The notes: generated from the sequence alone by a model not told the origin. A stretch of 50,285 bases of DNA from Candidatus Eiseniibacteriota bacterium (GCA_041483195.1 JBGPFC010000030.1:1-50285); one strand, 5' to 3'. Numbered from the stretch's first letter, positions 3,773 through 50,044 are shown. Made by a program: numbers and translations.

Positions 3773-4675
3773 TCAGTGGTAGTGCGAGTCCATCTCGCCG
3801 GCGCGGATCGCGACCTTGAGCGTGTTGGCCTTCGGCGGGATCGGACAGTTGTAGTGCTCAGAGACCGCGCACGCGGGGTTGTACGCGTTGTTGAAGTCGA
3901 GCACGAAGCGTCCGTCCGAGAGCGGCTCGACGTCTACGTAACGGCCCATTCCGTACGATTCCTTCCCGCTGGTCGCGTCGCGGAAGAAGACGCTGAGGTC
4001 CTTCTCGCCGACGCCGGGCTCCAGCAGCCGCGTCGCCTCGAGGCGGCACTTCTTCTTGCCCACCGTGAAGTCGAACCACCCCACGCGCAGCGCGTGGCGC
4101 TGATTGCCGCGCGTCGAGAGGATGATGACGGTGTCGGGCTTCGGATTGGGCGTGAGCGCCAGCACGTAACGGTACGAGAAGGTCACCGGGAACCAGTTCA
4201 GCCCCTTGTACTGTCCGAAGCGCGGGTTGTTCGGATCGAACACGATGATCGCCGGGAATCGCTGGTGGGAGAGGCGCAGCATGAAGCGCCCGACCCCGAT
4301 CCCGCCCGGCGCCACGGTCGCCGCCCGAACCGCGGTCTTGCCGACCCGAAAGTACGCGGTGTCGTCGAGCGCCTCGACGCGGAACGAATCTCCGGCCACC
4401 GACACCTGCAAATGATTCGGCGCGATCTCGGGGTCGTCGATGCGCACGTCGTTCCCCACCTCGCGGCCGACGGTCAGCGTCGTCCGGTAGCCGAAGTCGC
4501 GGCGCTGGACCGTGGCCAGGTAGGAGTTGGGCGCGCTCTTGAGCCAGTCCCTCGTATCATCGCGGTCCTTCGTGATCGCGCGGGTGAGCGAGTCGGCCGT
4601 GAGCGTGTCGACATGGGCCGGCGCCGCGGGCTTGACGGCGGCCAGAGTCGCGAGCGTGGCGAGCAGGACGAGCAT
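3773..4675 (-). CDS. DUF1684 family secreted protein
   Basis: Signal peptide; FRDATSGKESYGMGRY and LDFNNAYNPACA..YNCPIPP motifs. Confidence 0.88.
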   Translation of the reverse strand: MLVLLATLATLAAVKPAAPAHVDTLTADSLTRAITKDRDDTRDWLKSAPNSYLATVQRRDFGYRTTLTVGREVGNDVRIDDPEIAPNHLQVSVAGDSFRVEALDDTAYFRVGKTAVRAATVAPGGIGVGRFMLRLSHQRFPAIIVFDPNNPRFGQYKGLNWFPVTFSYRYVLALTPNPKPDTVIILSTRGNQRHALRVGWFDFTVGKKKCRLEATRLLEPGVGEKDLSVFFRDATSGKESYGMGRYVDVEPLSDGRFVLDFNNAYNPACAVSEHYNCPIPPKANTLKVAIRAGEMDSHYH

Positions 4676-9957: not shown

Positions 9958-11925
9958 ATGCCGACCCCCGCCGCTCCCACGCCCGCGCCAGGGAACGCAG
10001 CTTCCATCGCGACGCGGCTCGCGGTGGTCGGCACCGCCGGCCACATCGATCACGGCAAGACCGCGCTGGTGCGCCGGCTCACGGGCGTTGACACCGACCG
10101 GCTGCCCGAAGAGAAGAAGCGCGGCATCTCGATCGACCTCGGTTTCGCGCCGCTCGTCACCCCAGCCGGCGTTCACGTCGGGATCGTGGACGTGCCAGGG
10201 CACGAGCGCTTCGTCAAGAACATGCTGGCGGGCGTGGGCGGAATCGACCTGGTGCTGCTCGTGATCGCGGCCGACGAGGGCGTGATGCCGCAGACCCGCG
10301 AGCATCTCGCGATCGTGAAGCTGCTGGGGGTGCCGCGCGGGGTCGTGGTGCTCACCAAGCGCGATCTGGCGGATGCCGCATGGATCGAGCTGGTGCGGCG
10401 CGACGCGCGCGCGCTGATCGCGGACACCGCTTTCGCGGAGGCCCCGATCGTGGAGTTCTCGGCGACCACCGGCGCGGGAGCGCCCGAGCTGCTCGCGGCG
10501 CTCGACCAGCAGCTCGCCGCCGGCGAGAGTCGAGCGCTCGACGAGCCGGCGCGCCTCCCGGTGGATCGCGTGTTCACGGTCGAGGGCTTCGGCACCGTGG
10601 TGACCGGCACGCTGTGGCGCGGGCGCGTACGCACCGGCGACCATCTCGAACTGCTGCCGGCCGCGAAGCCGGTGCGCGTGCGGCGGGTCCAGGTGCACGG
10701 CGCGACGGTGGAGGAGGCGCGCGCCGGGCAGCGCGTCGCGCTCGCGCTCCACGGTATCGAGCGCGATCAACTCGCGCGCGGCGACTGGCTGGTGGCGCCC
10801 GGTTCGCTGCGCGGCTCGCACATGCTCGACGTGCGCTTCGAGCTGCTGCCCGACTATCCGAAAGCCTGGGGCGCCAACGTGCGGGTGCGTTTCCATCTCG
10901 GCGCGAGCGAGATCATCGGGCGGCTGGCGTTGCTGGAGGGTGCCGCGCTCGAGCCCGGACGAAGCGCGCTCGCGCAGCTGCGGCTCGAGCGTCCCGCGGT
11001 CGCGGCGCGCGGCGATCGCTTCGTGATCCGCTCGTATTCGCCGTCGCGCACCGTCGGCGGCGGCAGCGTGATCGAGCCGGCCGCCGCGAAGCGCCGCCGT
11101 CATGCGGTGGGCCTCGATCAGCTCGCGGTGCACGAGAGCGGATCGCTCGCCGCGCGGGTGCTGCAGCGGCTCGCGGCCGAGACCAAGCCGGTCGCGACCG
11201 GCGCGCTCGCTCAGGCGCTGGGCGAGAGCGAGGCGGCCACCGGCACGGCGCTCGCCGCGTTGCGCGGGTCGGGCGAGGCGGTCGCGCCCCTCGAAGGGCG
11301 CTGGCTCGCGCCCGCGCGCTGGGGCGCCGCGCGCGAGACCGTCACGCGCGAAGTTCGCGAATACGCCGCGCGGCACCCCGCGCGCTTCGGCGTGATGAAG
11401 GGCGACCTGAAGAGCGGGCTCAAGGGCGCCCTCGATGCGACGCTGTTCGACGCGGCGTTCGACGCGTTGCTGCGCGATGGCGCGCTCGAGCAGCGCGGCG
11501 AGCGGGTGCGCCCCGCCGGCGCGCCATGGTCGCCGCCCGCCGAGACGCTCGCGGCGCTCGAGAAGATCGAGCGCGAGCTGGAGGCCGCGGGGCTCGCGGT
11601 ACCCGAGTCGGCGGCCTGGCAGGCGAAGCTCGGCGCGGGGGCGGGGGAGATCGTGGCGCTCGGCGCGTTTCTCGGGCGGCTCACGCGCGTGAGCCAGGAG
11701 TTCACGTACACCACGCGCCAGCTCGAGGCGCTGCGCATGAAGCTCGCCGCGCACTTCGCGAAGCGCCCCACCCTGAACGTCGCCGAGTTCAAGGAAATCG
11801 CCGGCGTATCGCGAAAGTTCGCGGTGCCGCTGCTCGAACACGGCGATCGCGTGGGCTGGACGGTGCGCTCCGGCGACGAGCGCAAGCCGGGCGGGCGGTT
11901 GAATACGGCTGGAGCCGGCGCATGA
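9958..11925 (+). CDS. selB: Selenocysteine-specific elongation factor
   Basis: [37 protein letters not shown]-terminal winged helix [11 protein letters not shown]. Confidence 0.96.
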
Positions 11926-11974
11926 GCGAGGCGCATCCATGACGGCACCGAAGCATGGAGCGAGAACTTCCATC

Positions 11975-12003
11975 TTGAAATCCGCGGTCGCGGCGCCGAT
12001 AGT
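11975..12003 (+). promoter_or_regulatory. Putative sigma70 promoter
   Basis: TTGAAA-N17-GATAGT directly upstream of a structured leader. Confidence 0.5.
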
Positions 12004-12009
12004 GTGGCC

Positions 12010-12117
12010 ATGATGTTCCCGTGTGGGGTCGTGGCGCCCACGCGAATTACGTTCCCGGGTTCTTCGGAACCCGCATCTCGTCCCCGGGGGGGCAGCACTG
12101 CCCCCCGGGCATTTTTT
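12010..12117 (+). ncRNA. Putative short structured RNA upstream of the NYN gene
   Basis: Hairpin 12020-12044; CGGGTTC-TTCG-GAACCCG hairpin 12056-12073; possible closing GATG/CATC; then a terminator. Confidence 0.5.
12083..12117 (+). terminator. Intrinsic terminator
   Basis: CCCGGGGGGGCAG..CTGCCCCCCGGG stem followed by ATTTTTT. Confidence 0.75.
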
Positions 12118-12149
12118 GTCGAATGCCTCCGTACGATCGGGGGCATTCC

Positions 12150-12782
12150 ATGGTTCCTCGGGCAAGAGTCTTCGTCGACTTCTGGGATTTCCAGCTGCAG
12201 TGGAACAACCGGACGAGGAAGGCTGGATGCGATTGGACCAGACTTCCGCCCGTGCTCGCGAATCAGACGAGCGCCATTCTCCTTTACGCAGGTGTGGCCG
12301 GATCACTCAGCCTCGAGGAGGTTCGCGTCTACGCCTCGGTCGCGACGGACAGCCGGCGCGAGACCCGCCTCCGGCGCTGGCTCGATTTGTTCCTCGACCG
12401 CCAGCCCGGGTTCCGAGTCTTCGTTCGCGAGCGGCGCTCGCAGAGGCGTCCAGTTCGCTGCACGAAATGTGGCGGTACGCTCGAGGTCTGTCCCGTCTGC
12501 TCCAGCGCGCTGCGGAGCGCACCCGAGAAGGGAGTCGATGCGGCGATCGTCACGGACCTCCTCTCGCTCGGGTGGGATTCCGCATTCGACGTCGGCATTC
12601 TGGTCTCGAGTGATGCCGATCTCATTCCGGGTGTCGAGCGAGTCCAGGTCCGAGGGATCAAGATCGTGAATGCGGCGTGGCTCGGCCATGGACATCAGCT
12701 TGCAAGGACCTGCTGGGCTCATTTTCAGATCGATCCCCTCTGCGAGTCGCTGAGCCGGCCACGGAGCCATGACCCAACCTAG
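12150..12782 (+). CDS. NYN domain (LabA/DUF88, PIN-like) ribonuclease with a zinc-ribbon insertion
   Basis: RVFVDFWDF, EKGVDAAIVTD, ILVSSDADLIP acidic motifs; CTKC...CPVC insert. Confidence 0.88.
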   Translation: MVPRARVFVDFWDFQLQWNNRTRKAGCDWTRLPPVLANQTSAILLYAGVAGSLSLEEVRVYASVATDSRRETRLRRWLDLFLDRQPGFRVFVRERRSQRRPVRCTKCGGTLEVCPVCSSALRSAPEKGVDAAIVTDLLSLGWDSAFDVGILVSSDADLIPGVERVQVRGIKIVNAAWLGHGHQLARTCWAHFQIDPLCESLSRPRSHDPT

Positions 12783-12837
12783 GCCCATGCGCACAAGTTT
12801 CCAGGGAGCTCCGCCTTCGGGCCGGAAGCCGCCGCGG

Positions 12838-14778
12838 ATGAATCGCGCCGCCGATCCCGCGGGCGATCTCCTCTACCGCTCCGTGCTGGTGCTGGGCACG
12901 GCGGTGCTGCTGCTCAACGCGGCGGGGCTCGGTCCGCTGCGCGATCAGCTCTGGGGTTCGCACACCTACGCGTTCTTCCCGGCGTGGGTGTTCGTGATCG
13001 GGGCCGCCGCGCTGATCGCGATCGCGGCGCACGTCATGATGCGCGGCTTCACGCTCCCCGCGCTCACGCTCCCGAAGTGGGCGGGTCACGCGCTGCGCGC
13101 GCTCGGCGCCGCCGCGTTCTTCTGGCTCGCGCGCATCCGGCACGCGTTGCTCGGCGACGCCAACTCGCTCTCGCAGAATCTCCCGAATGGCGAGCACTTT
13201 CATCCCGACAGCCCGCTCACGCTGCTCGCCCATCAGGTGTTCTACCGGCTCACGCGCGCGCTGTTCGCCCACGTGCGCTTCGAGCCGGGCACCTTCTGGA
13301 ACGCCGACGCCGCGACCGCGTTCGCGACGGTGGGGCTCGGGAGCGCGATCTGCGGCGGCCTGTTCGCGCTGGTCGCGTGGGCGCTCGCGGGCGAGATGCT
13401 CGCGGCCCGGCCGCAGGCTGGCGCGAGTGCGGACCCGAAGAGCGAGCCGTTGCGCTGGCTGCTGTTCCTCGTGCTCATGGGCCAGGGCTACGCGCTGCTG
13501 TTCTGCGGCTACGTCGAGAACTACACGTACCTGCTCTTCACCATGGCGGCGTACCTGTGGCTCGCGCTTCGCCACCTGCGCGGCGGCGCGCTGTTCTGGC
13601 CGGGGCTGGCGCTGATGTTCGCCGTCGCATGGCACCTGATGGCCGCGATCCTCGGGCCGTCGTTCCTCGTCATGGCGTGGCTCGCGCTCGCGAGGCGCGA
13701 GCGCCGCGTCGCCGCGATCCGCGATCTCGCGCTGCTCGCCGCCGCGCTCGCGGCGCTGCTCGCGTTCCTCGCGTGGGTGGGCGGGGGCTACAACCTGTTC
13801 GCGCACCTGTTCCAGATGATCCACACGGCGGGCACCGGCGAGGTGCAGCAGGATCACGTCGGCATGTTCGCGCCCGAGCACTGGCGCGATTTCCTCAGCG
13901 AGCAATTGCTGATCGGACCGCTCGGCTTCCTGCTGCTGGTGCCCGCCGCGGCCTGGGTGCTGCGCGGCGGCCGCTGGCGCGAGCCCGCCGCGCTGGTGCT
14001 GCTGGTCGCCGCGGGGCTGTGCGCGCTGATGAGCTGGGTGACCCGCGACCTGCGCCTCGGCTACGGACGGGACTGGGACCTGTTCGCGCCATATGGAATG
14101 GTGATGAGTGTGTTCGCGCTCTACGTGTTCGCGAGCGGCGCGCGCGCCGCGGCGCGGCTGCAGTCGAGCCTCGCGCTCGCGGTGGCCGTCTCGCTGTTCA
14201 CCACCCTGCCGTGGATCGCGCTCAACACGTCGTGGGACCGATCGTTCGCGCGGCTCAAGACCCTGCCGCTCGGTCGCGGGCGCACCGAGGGCGTGGTCGG
14301 TTACTGGTACGGACAGCGCAAGGACTACGCGAACGCGCACGCGTGGCTCGATCGCTCGCTCGAGATCTACCCCGGCAATCTCTCATCGACGATCATCTCC
14401 GGGTACTTCTACCTGCAGGAGGGCAAGTTTCTCGACGGGGCGAAGAGTTTCTACATGGCGACCAGGCTGCGGCCGAGCTTCATGAGCTATCGCGTGCGGC
14501 TGGTGGACGCGCTGGTGCGCGCGGGCCAGCCCGAGGCCGCGGTGACCGAGGCCGAGACGCTGGTCGAGAAGTGGCCGACCAACGCCCAGGCGTTCGCGAT
14601 GTACGGCATCGCGCTCCACGGCGTGGGCCGCGTTGACGAAGCGCGGGCGGCGCTGGGCGGCGCGATTCAAATGGCGCCGAACGAAGTCGCGTATCGTGGG
14701 GCGCTCGCGAATCTCGCCATCGAAGGCGGCTACGAGCTGACGCTGAAGACGCTATGGCAACGCGTGGCGGGGGAGTGA
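12838..14778 (+). CDS. Multi-pass membrane protein with C-terminal TPRs (GT-C-like)
   Basis: About a dozen TM segments; LLGDA, GYVENY and RDWDLF motifs; TPR-like C-terminus; start could be 12769, 12787 or 12838. Confidence 0.7.
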   Translation: MNRAADPAGDLLYRSVLVLGTAVLLLNAAGLGPLRDQLWGSHTYAFFPAWVFVIGAAALIAIAAHVMMRGFTLPALTLPKWAGHALRALGAAAFFWLARIRHALLGDANSLSQNLPNGEHFHPDSPLTLLAHQVFYRLTRALFAHVRFEPGTFWNADAATAFATVGLGSAICGGLFALVAWALAGEMLAARPQAGASADPKSEPLRWLLFLVLMGQGYALLFCGYVENYTYLLFTMAAYLWLALRHLRGGALFWPGLALMFAVAWHLMAAILGPSFLVMAWLALARRERRVAAIRDLALLAAALAALLAFLAWVGGGYNLFAHLFQMIHTAGTGEVQQDHVGMFAPEHWRDFLSEQLLIGPLGFLLLVPAAAWVLRGGRWREPAALVLLVAAGLCALMSWVTRDLRLGYGRDWDLFAPYGMVMSVFALYVFASGARAAARLQSSLALAVAVSLFTTLPWIALNTSWDRSFARLKTLPLGRGRTEGVVGYWYGQRKDYANAHAWLDRSLEIYPGNLSSTIISGYFYLQEGKFLDGAKSFYMATRLRPSFMSYRVRLVDALVRAGQPEAAVTEAETLVEKWPTNAQAFAMYGIALHGVGRVDEARAALGGAIQMAPNEVAYRGALANLAIEGGYELTLKTLWQRVAGE

Positions 14779-49374: not shown

Positions 49375-49447
49375 GCTGGCGTAGCTCAATTGGTAGAGCA
49401 TCTCATTTGTAATGAGGTGGTTGGGGGTTCGAGTCCCTTCGCCAGCT
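49375..49447 (+). tRNA. tRNA-Thr(TGT)
   Basis: Cloverleaf; anticodon loop TTTGTAA; TTCGAGT T-loop; CCA not encoded. Confidence 0.95.
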
Positions 49448-49492
49448 TGCTTACCCGCCGCCGAGCGGGATGATGGGTCGCCTGAATTTCGT

Positions 49493-49577
49493 GGAGGGGT
49501 TCCCGAGCGGTCAAAGGGAACAGACTGTAAATCTGTCGGCGAAGCCTTCGGAGGTTCGAATCCTCCCCCCTCCACCA
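49493..49577 (+). tRNA. tRNA-Tyr(GTA)
   Basis: Anticodon loop CTGTAAA; long variable arm; ends in CCA. Confidence 0.96.
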
Positions 49578-49601
49578 TCTTCAATTGTGGCAGCGATTTG
49601 A

Positions 49602-49677
49602 GCGGGAATAGCTCAGCGGCTAGAGCGTCAGCCTTCCAAGCTGAGGGTCGCGGGTTCGAATCCCGTTTCCCGCTCCA
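49602..49677 (+). tRNA. tRNA-Gly(TCC)
   Basis: Anticodon loop CTTCCAA; ends in CCA. Confidence 0.96.
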
Positions 49678-49770
49678 GCTTTGGCCTTCGCGGAAGGGCC
49701 GCGTCCCTCGGGGCGCCCGTTTTTCGGGCGTCCCGAATCTTTGAAATCTTTGTGAGGCCTCATTTTCACG

Positions 49771-49800
49771 TTGACACCCCCGGGCCCGGATTACTAAATT
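49771..49800 (+). promoter_or_regulatory. Internal sigma70 promoter for tRNA-Thr and tuf
   Basis: TTGACA-N18-TAAATT after a hairpin-rich spacer. Confidence 0.5.
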
Positions 49801-49968
49801 GCGTTGCTCGTGCATCTCACCGACGACTTTCGAGCGAAGAAAGCCGGCTCGGGAGAGTGCGTCTTGGTAGCCTGGGACGCTGAGCCACGTCATCACCGTC
49901 CGGTAGGGCACTCCTGAAACTTGCGCTGCGGAACATGTGCCGCCGGTCCGGACGCCCCGGTCGATTCA

Positions 49969-50044
49969 GCCCACGTAGCTCAGTCGGTAGAGCATTTGCA
50001 TGGTAAGCAAAAGGTCAGCGGTTCGATTCCGCTCGTGGGCTCCA
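49969..50044 (+). tRNA. tRNA-Thr(GGT)
   Basis: Anticodon loop ATGGTAA; ends in CCA. Confidence 0.95.

Follow-up and report, generated by a model that had tools for sequence, protein, structure and literature searches.

A tandem-hairpin RNA conserved upstream of a NYN ribonuclease gene in bacteria: a possible RNA-antitoxin module of a new kind

What does a short structured RNA, apparently equipped with its own promoter and terminator, do directly in front of a ribonuclease gene? The question is raised by a cassette of approximately 0.8 kb in a 50,285-nucleotide (nt) stretch of DNA from Candidatus Eiseniibacteriota bacterium (GCA_041483195.1, JBGPFC010000030.1:1-50285; hereafter, the window), in which such an RNA precedes the gene for a NYN ribonuclease, with selB upstream and, as a first-pass annotation of the window had stated, a membrane-protein gene (encoding a TPR protein) downstream. 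That annotation proposed that the cassette is an RNA-antitoxin or defence module based on a NYN nuclease. Comparison with other genomes confirms that RNA and nuclease form a genuine pair and that this pair is widely conserved, and the RNA is a well-supported structured class that is lacking from Rfam 15. The further reading of the pair as a type III-like RNA antitoxin and NYN toxin, or as a defence module, stands at about an even chance in our judgement. The predicted elements of the cassette are as follows.

11975-12003, plus strand: promoter-like site TTGAAA-N17-GATAGT, found by a scan for sigma-70-like motifs
12010-12118, plus strand: small RNA (predicted; approximately 109 nt), with three tandem hairpin units and conserved linkers
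12020-12044, plus strand: hairpin of unit 1, CGUGUGGG / CCCACGCG, with a 9-nt loop, UUCC before it and AAUUA after it
12056-12073, plus strand: hairpin of unit 2, CGGGUUC-UUCG-GAACCCG, with UUCC before it and CAUC after it
12083-12117, plus strand: unit 3, a G+C-rich hairpin (12083-12109) followed by CAUUUUUU; this last unit is an intrinsic terminator
12121-12148, plus strand: post-terminator hairpin covering the GGGGG ribosome-binding site, 5 nt upstream of the NYN start
12150-12782, plus strand: gene for the NYN ribonuclease with a zinc ribbon, 210 amino acids, recognized by Pfam NYN

The promoter-like site is the sole sigma-70-like site between positions 11000 and 13500, where 0.1 would be expected from shuffled sequences, and the 5′ end of the RNA would lie approximately 7 nt past the -10 hexamer, with the 3′ end within the U tract encoded by six T residues (12112-12117) directly behind the stem of unit 3. 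The promoter, the two hairpins (one with a UUCG loop) and the strong terminator of the first-pass annotation are all present at these positions, and the cassette is, as had been noted, less rich in G+C than its surroundings (0.61-0.68 across 11850-12900 versus 0.70-0.78 on either side). Two details of that description have to be given up. A helix of GATG and CATC, suggested as possibly closing the pair of hairpins, is kept neither in a sister genome of the same genus nor in the family consensus, and the RNA, which was said to lack tandem repeats, is composed of three structurally equivalent tandem units.

The fold of the window sequence is unexceptional when taken alone, because a 122-nt stretch gives a z-score of -1.69 and 13 of 200 shuffled sequences are equally stable; the hairpin of unit 1 has a predicted energy of -15.3 kcal/mol, and that of unit 2 has a z-score of -3.24. 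Proof of structure thus rests on comparison with other loci. The modest z-score of the 122-nt fold would also suit an explanation in which nothing links the RNA to NYN, the terminator serving selB and the other hairpins being the generic G+C-rich hairpins of a genome with 72% G+C. This explanation becomes scarcely credible in the light of the comparison that follows.

A scan of species-representative genomes yielded 175 NYN loci, and the analysis covers the best 80 of them. The last two RNA units of 27 loci were aligned with MAFFT to form a seed, and RNAalifold applied to this MAFFT-only alignment gives 14 base pairs, 11 of which show compensatory changes. A covariance model, R1, which therefore represents the last two units, was built from the seed and searched against the window, the 80 loci and the sister-genome locus (648 kb, both strands). 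In the window R1 matches 12044-12119 with 50.7 bits (expect value, E, 3e-11), and exactly one full-length match, on the NYN coding strand and just upstream of the NYN gene, is found in 50 of the 80 loci, which span approximately 12 phyla; 25 of the 52 R1 matches are absent from the seed alignment. Beyond these, R1 gives weak matches only: two on the plus strand that are partial (E 0.18 and 0.29) and, for the rest, reverse-strand matches with E>0.01 that correspond to the palindromic last hairpin read backwards. Conservation of an upstream structure among NYN homologues had been set beforehand as a test of the first-pass annotation, and such a structure, with strong covariation, is indeed found at these 50 of 80 loci and on plasmids.

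When the 52 R1 matches are aligned, 97.5% of the cells form standard pairs, compared with 74.1% after shuffling (none of 500 shuffles reaches the observed value) and 31-53% with the pairing partners slid, although the percentage paired is inflated because the seed loci were chosen by a regular expression that requires hairpins and because this 52-sequence alignment (A5) is fitted to R1. In the same alignment, whose sequences are related and hence not independent, 13 of the 14 pairs have changed on both sides and 159 cells carry a double change. All four modelled pairs of helix 1, which corresponds to unit 2, covary; in helix 2, which corresponds to unit 3 and is followed by a conserved yAUU and a U-rich tail, 9 of the 10 pairs show compensatory changes. 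Unit 1, aligned separately from 12 RNAs with three units, has eight pairs, six of them compensatory. The RNA is no chance fold, as covariation and conservation across loci beyond the window, and across phyla, indicate. The RNA also occurs once per genome, at NYN loci, and is found neither behind selB in the same-genus genome G001, which carries other DNA there, nor anywhere in G001 or in a second same-genus genome, G002, in which the selB locus stops at a contig end.

Known RNA classes do not account for the element. With Rfam 15, no family falls on the RNA at E<=10 in 11500-13000, the sole matches in this interval (E 3.2 and 6.1) lying inside selB at 11745-11885, and no family falls on the RNA at gathering scores in 15 other loci. 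The candidate of a tRNA-Sec or other known RNA located 3′ of selB was rejected, because ARAGORN finds no tRNA and Rfam no family at E<=10. A repeated genomic element was rejected because the RNA is single-copy in the genome of the window by both blastn and R1; a partial blastn match in one locus (L116) sits within a coding region and is a chance match. There is no riboswitch-type aptamer core, since loops and stems vary freely and, apart from the final stem, conservation is limited to the flanks of the hairpins. Integron attC sites, riboswitches and ANTAR-type two-hairpin sites were dropped because the flanks of the hairpins are conserved rather than loops or junctions, and because neither an integrase nor an array is present. 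Two riboswitches lie near cassettes of other loci, a SAM-I/IV riboswitch in L027 (531-661, minus strand) and a cobalamin riboswitch in L041 (4852-5033, plus strand); each belongs to the gene next to it and has no relation to the cassette.

What is conserved is a grammar of units and linkers. Arrays contain 2-4 units, three in the window. In the R1 alignment, the hairpins of the two units are closed by a C-G pair in 51/52 and 46/52 sequences and preceded by C in 51/52 and 52/52, and directly behind the hairpins stands yAU, with A in 48-51 and U in 47-49 of the 52 sequences. The linker, with a consensus of approximately yAUUAnAUCC, is present ahead of the first unit and between units, and in a shortened form also behind the last unit, where it merges into the U tract. 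One locus, L037, carries four units, two of them near-identical (35-nt period, 2.3 copies, 89% matches). Promoter-like sites, which are consensus matches and not mapped transcript ends, are detected in 39 of 51 loci; the distance from the end of the -10 hexamer to the start of R1 is 2-6 nt in 23 loci and 37-40 nt in 11, including the window, with the site elsewhere in 5. These two spacings indicate that arrays differ by one whole unit of approximately 35 nt. The same -35/-10 pattern occurs 39-40 nt ahead of the R1 start in two other Eisenbacteria (L027 and L030). The 220 nt upstream of the NYN starts show a recurring design: a promoter-like site, 2-4 hairpins with like flanks, the last of them with a U-rich tail behind it, and then a ribosome-binding site ahead of the start codon.

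The terminator probably governs how NYN is expressed. One promoter-like site, phased with the array in 34 of the 39 loci with a detected site, and an intrinsic terminator between the array and the nuclease gene are found. Across loci the last unit lies 9-92 nt ahead of the NYN start codon (31 nt in the window), which leaves no space for a separate promoter, so that NYN would be reached by read-through of the terminator; and because the last unit is itself an intrinsic terminator, the RNA would be over-produced relative to NYN. The hairpin that follows the terminator in the window (12121-12148) is predicted at -19.8 kcal/mol (z = -4.54, 0 of 200 shuffles as stable) and is retained in the sister genome with two pair-preserving changes; it is genus-specific and is absent in L027.

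An arrangement of this sort may also be read as a cis autoregulatory leader or attenuator, in which binding or cleavage of the units, by NYN itself or by a factor of the host, sets termination, read-through and the stability of the NYN mRNA, so that NYN would be a non-toxic, specialized RNase and the RNA would have no role in trans. RNase III and RNase E regulate via their own leaders. The constant location of the RNA on the same strand, directly upstream of NYN and with its terminator 9-92 nt from the start codon, fits such a leader, as do the single visible promoter and, in the window, the masking of the ribosome-binding site by a second hairpin; growth of the array by whole units with conserved linkers, on the other hand, is unneeded by a simple attenuator. 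The distinction is blurred in part, because type III toxin-antitoxin loci likewise attenuate the toxin gene by the same terminator. We consider a leader acting solely in cis, the principal alternative, possible, if rather unlikely, and return to it below with the distribution of the pair and with the loci that lack the RNA.

The protein is a NYN nuclease with an insertion in its domain. The product of the open reading frame (ORF) scores 29.9 bits against Pfam NYN (PF01936; cut-off 24.2), and the acidic motifs that had been pointed out in it are borne out by comparison, D10, D130, D136, D155 and D157 being invariant among 74 homologues together with the four Cys residues of a zinc ribbon, CxxC...CxxC (C104, C107, C114 and C117), which is inserted within the NYN domain. 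An AlphaFold2 model (predicted local distance difference test score 95.4), used as the query in Foldseek, has as its best matches in the PDB 2qip (E 5.7e-8) and the NYN domain of MARF1 (approximately 1e-3). Weak structural matches to sirtuins (template-modelling score approximately 0.33) are probably explained by a Rossmann-like core with an inserted zinc module. Searched by sequence, the PDB gives one chance match only (E 0.91), and no NCBIfam family matches the protein. Among the candidates scored, 585 NYN relatives of approximately 200 amino acids, 50-61% identical and from many phyla, are found at E<=1e-3. In PADLOC, only the HEC-09 and NYN models match, the former (E 1.1e-9) over residues 112-168 against positions 89-145 of a profile of 203. 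In one Eisenbacteria contig (L029, 145-1323), the NYN frame stops after 118 amino acids and the C-terminal part lies in a second ORF (529-1323), by frameshift of the gene or assembly error; the upstream RNA is intact there (55.9 bits).

How closely are RNA and protein tied? R1 has a single match in the whole genome of the window, at the NYN locus, and one match each, likewise at the NYN locus, in five other whole genomes (2.6-7.8 Mb). When genomes are scanned for the RNA first, 3 of 151 genomes of the phylum of the window have a match, namely the genome of the window, G071, with NYN directly downstream, and the sister genome G003, without NYN; in the class around Sphaerisporangium, 2 of 151 genomes have a match, both with NYN downstream. 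The pair thus occurs in 2/151 and 2/151 genomes, plus one remnant, and the RNA-first and NYN-first scans together indicate that RNA and NYN are tightly linked in both directions, yet rare. NYN orthologues were not found in the 40 nearest genomes searched, which gave only weak paralogue matches, and synteny was rejected as an explanation, because no orthologue was found in these 40 relatives and other DNA stands behind selB in G001.

No third gene is shared by the cassettes. The nearest ORF on each side of 50 cassettes was taken by a longest-ORF rule, and the resulting 92 flanking ORFs share no common family, so that no conserved protein partner is apparent. Housekeeping genes such as metG, recA, alr, metH and priA occur among the neighbours, and 8 loci stand beside defence or mobile genes (type I and Eco57I-like restriction-modification, Type ISP, SNF2/NOV_C helicases, M78 peptidase, HARE-HTH and integrase). 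In the window, the downstream ORF of the TPR membrane protein shares its first 14 nt, as annotated, with the NYN 3′ end (12769-12782); there are other in-frame starts at 12787 and 12838, so that the protein may begin at one of these and may or may not be co-transcribed with NYN. Four tRNA genes (Thr, Tyr, Gly and Thr) are clustered at the far end of the window (49375-50044).

Distant NYN homologues, 30-36% identical, are encoded on five small plasmids of 6-12 kb. R1 matches at the expected place on a 6.3-kb plasmid of Novacetimonas hansenii (46.3 bits) and on an 11.8-kb plasmid of Pararoseomonas (39.1 bits), both alphaproteobacterial, so that RNA and NYN occur together on them; a Paracoccus plasmid copy gives just 11 bits, at the correct place. 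By eye, the NYN genes of the gammaproteobacterial plasmids of Aeromonas and Cobetia (L123, 2900-2997; L131, 640-733) have two leader hairpins, each followed by UAGG...AU, and this leader looks like a diverged form of the RNA that R1 misses on the correct strand. A rare and patchy distribution that includes small plasmids is unlike that of a finely autoregulated housekeeping RNase, and in this respect fits poorly with a leader acting in cis alone.

In the sister genome G003, the order from selB to the TPR-protein gene is kept and the content between them differs: selB is followed by an inserted MNT/HEPN pair, on whose flanks the 3′ end of selB is duplicated over 10-11 nt; behind the pair follow the promoter (TTGAAA-N18-GATAAT) and three hairpins, with 78% identity over 152 nt; and HicA and HicB occupy the place of NYN. 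Relative to the window, unit 1 has two one-sided changes that keep pairing and the loop of unit 2 has changed from UUCG to UACG, and the AU of all three linkers behind the hairpins is mutated, the R1 score falling to 28 bits. We read the RNA of G003 as a decaying remnant within a toxin-antitoxin hot spot, with an order of events that is presumed. The DNA located 3′ of selB appears in this genus as a hot spot of toxin-antitoxin genes (L107, G003:C117 2758-4330; equivalent in the window, 11926-12150).

The persistence of promoter and hairpins without NYN in G003 would also be expected if the RNA were the payload of the cassette and NYN a dedicated maturation enzyme, the single hairpins acting elsewhere, for instance as decoys or guides or by regulating targets in the host or in phages. 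The grammar of units and linkers does resemble a processing substrate, and the RNA has a phased promoter and a terminator of its own. Against this reading, no targeting sequence is conserved, since stems and loops vary freely and the flanks alone are kept; furthermore, the G003 copy no longer has the linker motifs, and no conserved third component was found. We regard a payload RNA as quite improbable.

Thirty of the 80 loci have no R1 match. In one of them, L058, only 24 nt of upstream DNA are available, so that presence of the RNA cannot be judged; the other 29 belong to Solirubrobacterales. A quick IQ-TREE tree of 80 proteins, L029 being left out because of its 118-amino-acid ORF, places these 29 homologues in one clade (Shimodaira-Hasegawa-like approximate likelihood-ratio support, SH-aLRT, 99) that is nested among RNA-bearing Thermoleophilia and whose sister, L066, carries the RNA. 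R1 finds no copy of the RNA genome-wide in 5 RNA-less Solirubrobacterales genomes, and one match each in 5 RNA-bearing control genomes, which speaks against the RNA being encoded elsewhere in the RNA-less group. The protein has changed in this clade as well. All 50 RNA-bearing proteins have Asp at residue 136, which belongs to the IVTD motif, whereas 26 of the 29 clade members have another residue there (24 Gly, 1 Ser and 1 Ala); Asp is kept in a small subclade (L071, L075 and L076) and also in L058. Of six distant NYN paralogues from related genomes that can be aligned, five have Asp at the equivalent position, and D136 is presumably the catalytic Asp known from NYN nucleases. The whole RNA-less clade has, in addition, substitutions at R6, Q15, N19 and R203, and of these R6 and R203 may be RNA contacts.

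A toxin-antitoxin relation predicts that the RNA and an active-site Asp would be lost together; the coincidence is less expected of a leader acting in cis, to which the persistence of NYN homologues without RNA in this one clade is otherwise congenial. Two further observations concern the upstream DNA of these loci. In L089, a 43-nt unit is present three times upstream of NYN (3841-3969), and in most of L071-L104 a -10-like hexamer, TATCCT, lies partly within an inverted repeat, CAGGATAGG...CCTATCCTG, beside a divergent gene whose product starts MKFGGTS. This upstream feature could be another regulatory element, one that took the place of the hairpin RNA.

Type III toxin-antitoxin systems comprise the tenpIN, toxIN and cptIN classes according to a recent account (PMC13682666, October 2026), and the general description of the type used here draws in part on that source and on a second one (PMC8860590). 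The cassette resembles these systems (ToxIN, CptIN and TenpIN, with AbiQ/antiQ) in having a promoter, tandem RNA units, an intrinsic terminator and an endoribonuclease gene, with no protein antitoxin, with occurrence on small plasmids and patchy spread, and with arrays that vary by whole units. It differs from them in three respects: the nuclease has a NYN domain with a zinc ribbon instead of the ToxN/AbiQ fold; the RNA consists of simple hairpins, whose stems vary and between which the linkers are conserved, instead of near-identical repeats of 36-45 nt; and the last RNA unit is itself the terminator. To our knowledge, all three type III families share one toxin fold. What stands of the module proposed in the first-pass annotation is its type III-like architecture and an RNA that occurs essentially only beside NYN; a toxin of the known ToxN type is not present.

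Other known systems are nearer to the protein than to the cassette as a whole. NYN/LabA-like nucleases (PF01936, 2qip and MARF1) share the fold and the acidic active-site residues, whereas the present subfamily has an inserted C4 zinc ribbon and a dedicated upstream RNA. Bacterial LabA-like NYN proteins number thousands of sequences, and the 2017 classification of the PIN superfamily states that no bacterial member of NYN.COG1432 had by then been studied as a nuclease (Matelska et al., 2017, PMC5499597). HEC-09, a PADLOC candidate from Hachiman loci, is likewise a NYN protein of approximately 200 residues found in defence contexts, whereas its profile matches only residues 112-168 of the present protein. 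VapBC and other PIN-domain type II pairs, in which a PIN-like, metal-dependent RNase is the toxin of a small, mobile, two-part module, are alike in that respect, whereas VapC is neutralized by the protein VapB and here the RNA is the sole conserved partner. In the literature searched, outside of which lie subscription-only papers and supplements, no type III toxin-antitoxin system with a NYN protein was found in full texts and no bacterial NYN-associated RNA was found by title.

As a self-contained module of two parts, the cassette would act in the manner of a type III system with other components, and the mechanism that we propose is conditional throughout. A single promoter would produce a short RNA of tandem hairpin units, and the terminal unit would stop transcription, so that the RNA is in excess and read-through transcripts alone reach NYN; in the genus of the window, the extra hairpin would in addition bury the ribosome-binding site of NYN. 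The NYN endoribonuclease would recognize the grammar of hairpins and linkers, probably cutting within the linkers, and the array of units would be both its substrate and its inhibitor, bound units keeping NYN inactive. Should the supply of RNA fail, free NYN may degrade cellular RNA and inhibit growth, with plasmid addiction or abortive-infection defence as the possible outcome.

Several points weigh against a toxin and its RNA antitoxin. The RNA is in every case encoded in cis, right ahead of NYN and on its strand, and a leader would look identical. Except in L037, the units are degenerate, with stems that differ from unit to unit, compared with the near-identical repeats of ToxI, and the choice of seed loci and the fitted alignment described above lend the pairing statistics part of their strength. 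NYN is present without the RNA at the 29 Solirubrobacterales loci, where L071, L075 and L076 retain Asp136, so that NYN on its own is not necessarily lethal; and since loss of the RNA and change of D136 form one event (n = 1), their coincidence has no statistical weight. No copy of the RNA was found in the phage records and viral contigs searched. Finally, HEC-09, a distantly related NYN candidate, did not protect Escherichia coli from the phages tested, according to a preprint (bioRxiv 10.1101/2024.01.29.577857).

With these points set against the architecture, the tight linkage and the joint loss, a type III-like module of RNA antitoxin and NYN toxin, or of defence, remains in our estimate an evenly balanced proposition. 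With a similarly divided degree of belief, we suggest that the cassette defines a fourth kind of RNA-antitoxin (type III) system, in which a PIN-like NYN protein would for the first time be the toxin. This kind would be distributed over at least a dozen phyla and small proteobacterial plasmids, and one lineage of it would have been domesticated with loss of the RNA and of the active-site Asp. Because the module is small and cultured, non-pathogenic carriers exist, among them Sphaerisporangium rufum, Desulfatibacillum alkenivorans and Novacetimonas hansenii (on the plasmid), the hypothesis is directly testable. If it is true, RNA antitoxins would have arisen independently for a PIN-like nuclease, and bacterial LabA-like NYN proteins would have a first defined partner; even if the RNA acts only as a leader in cis, the cassette would represent a new conserved protein-RNA regulatory pair.

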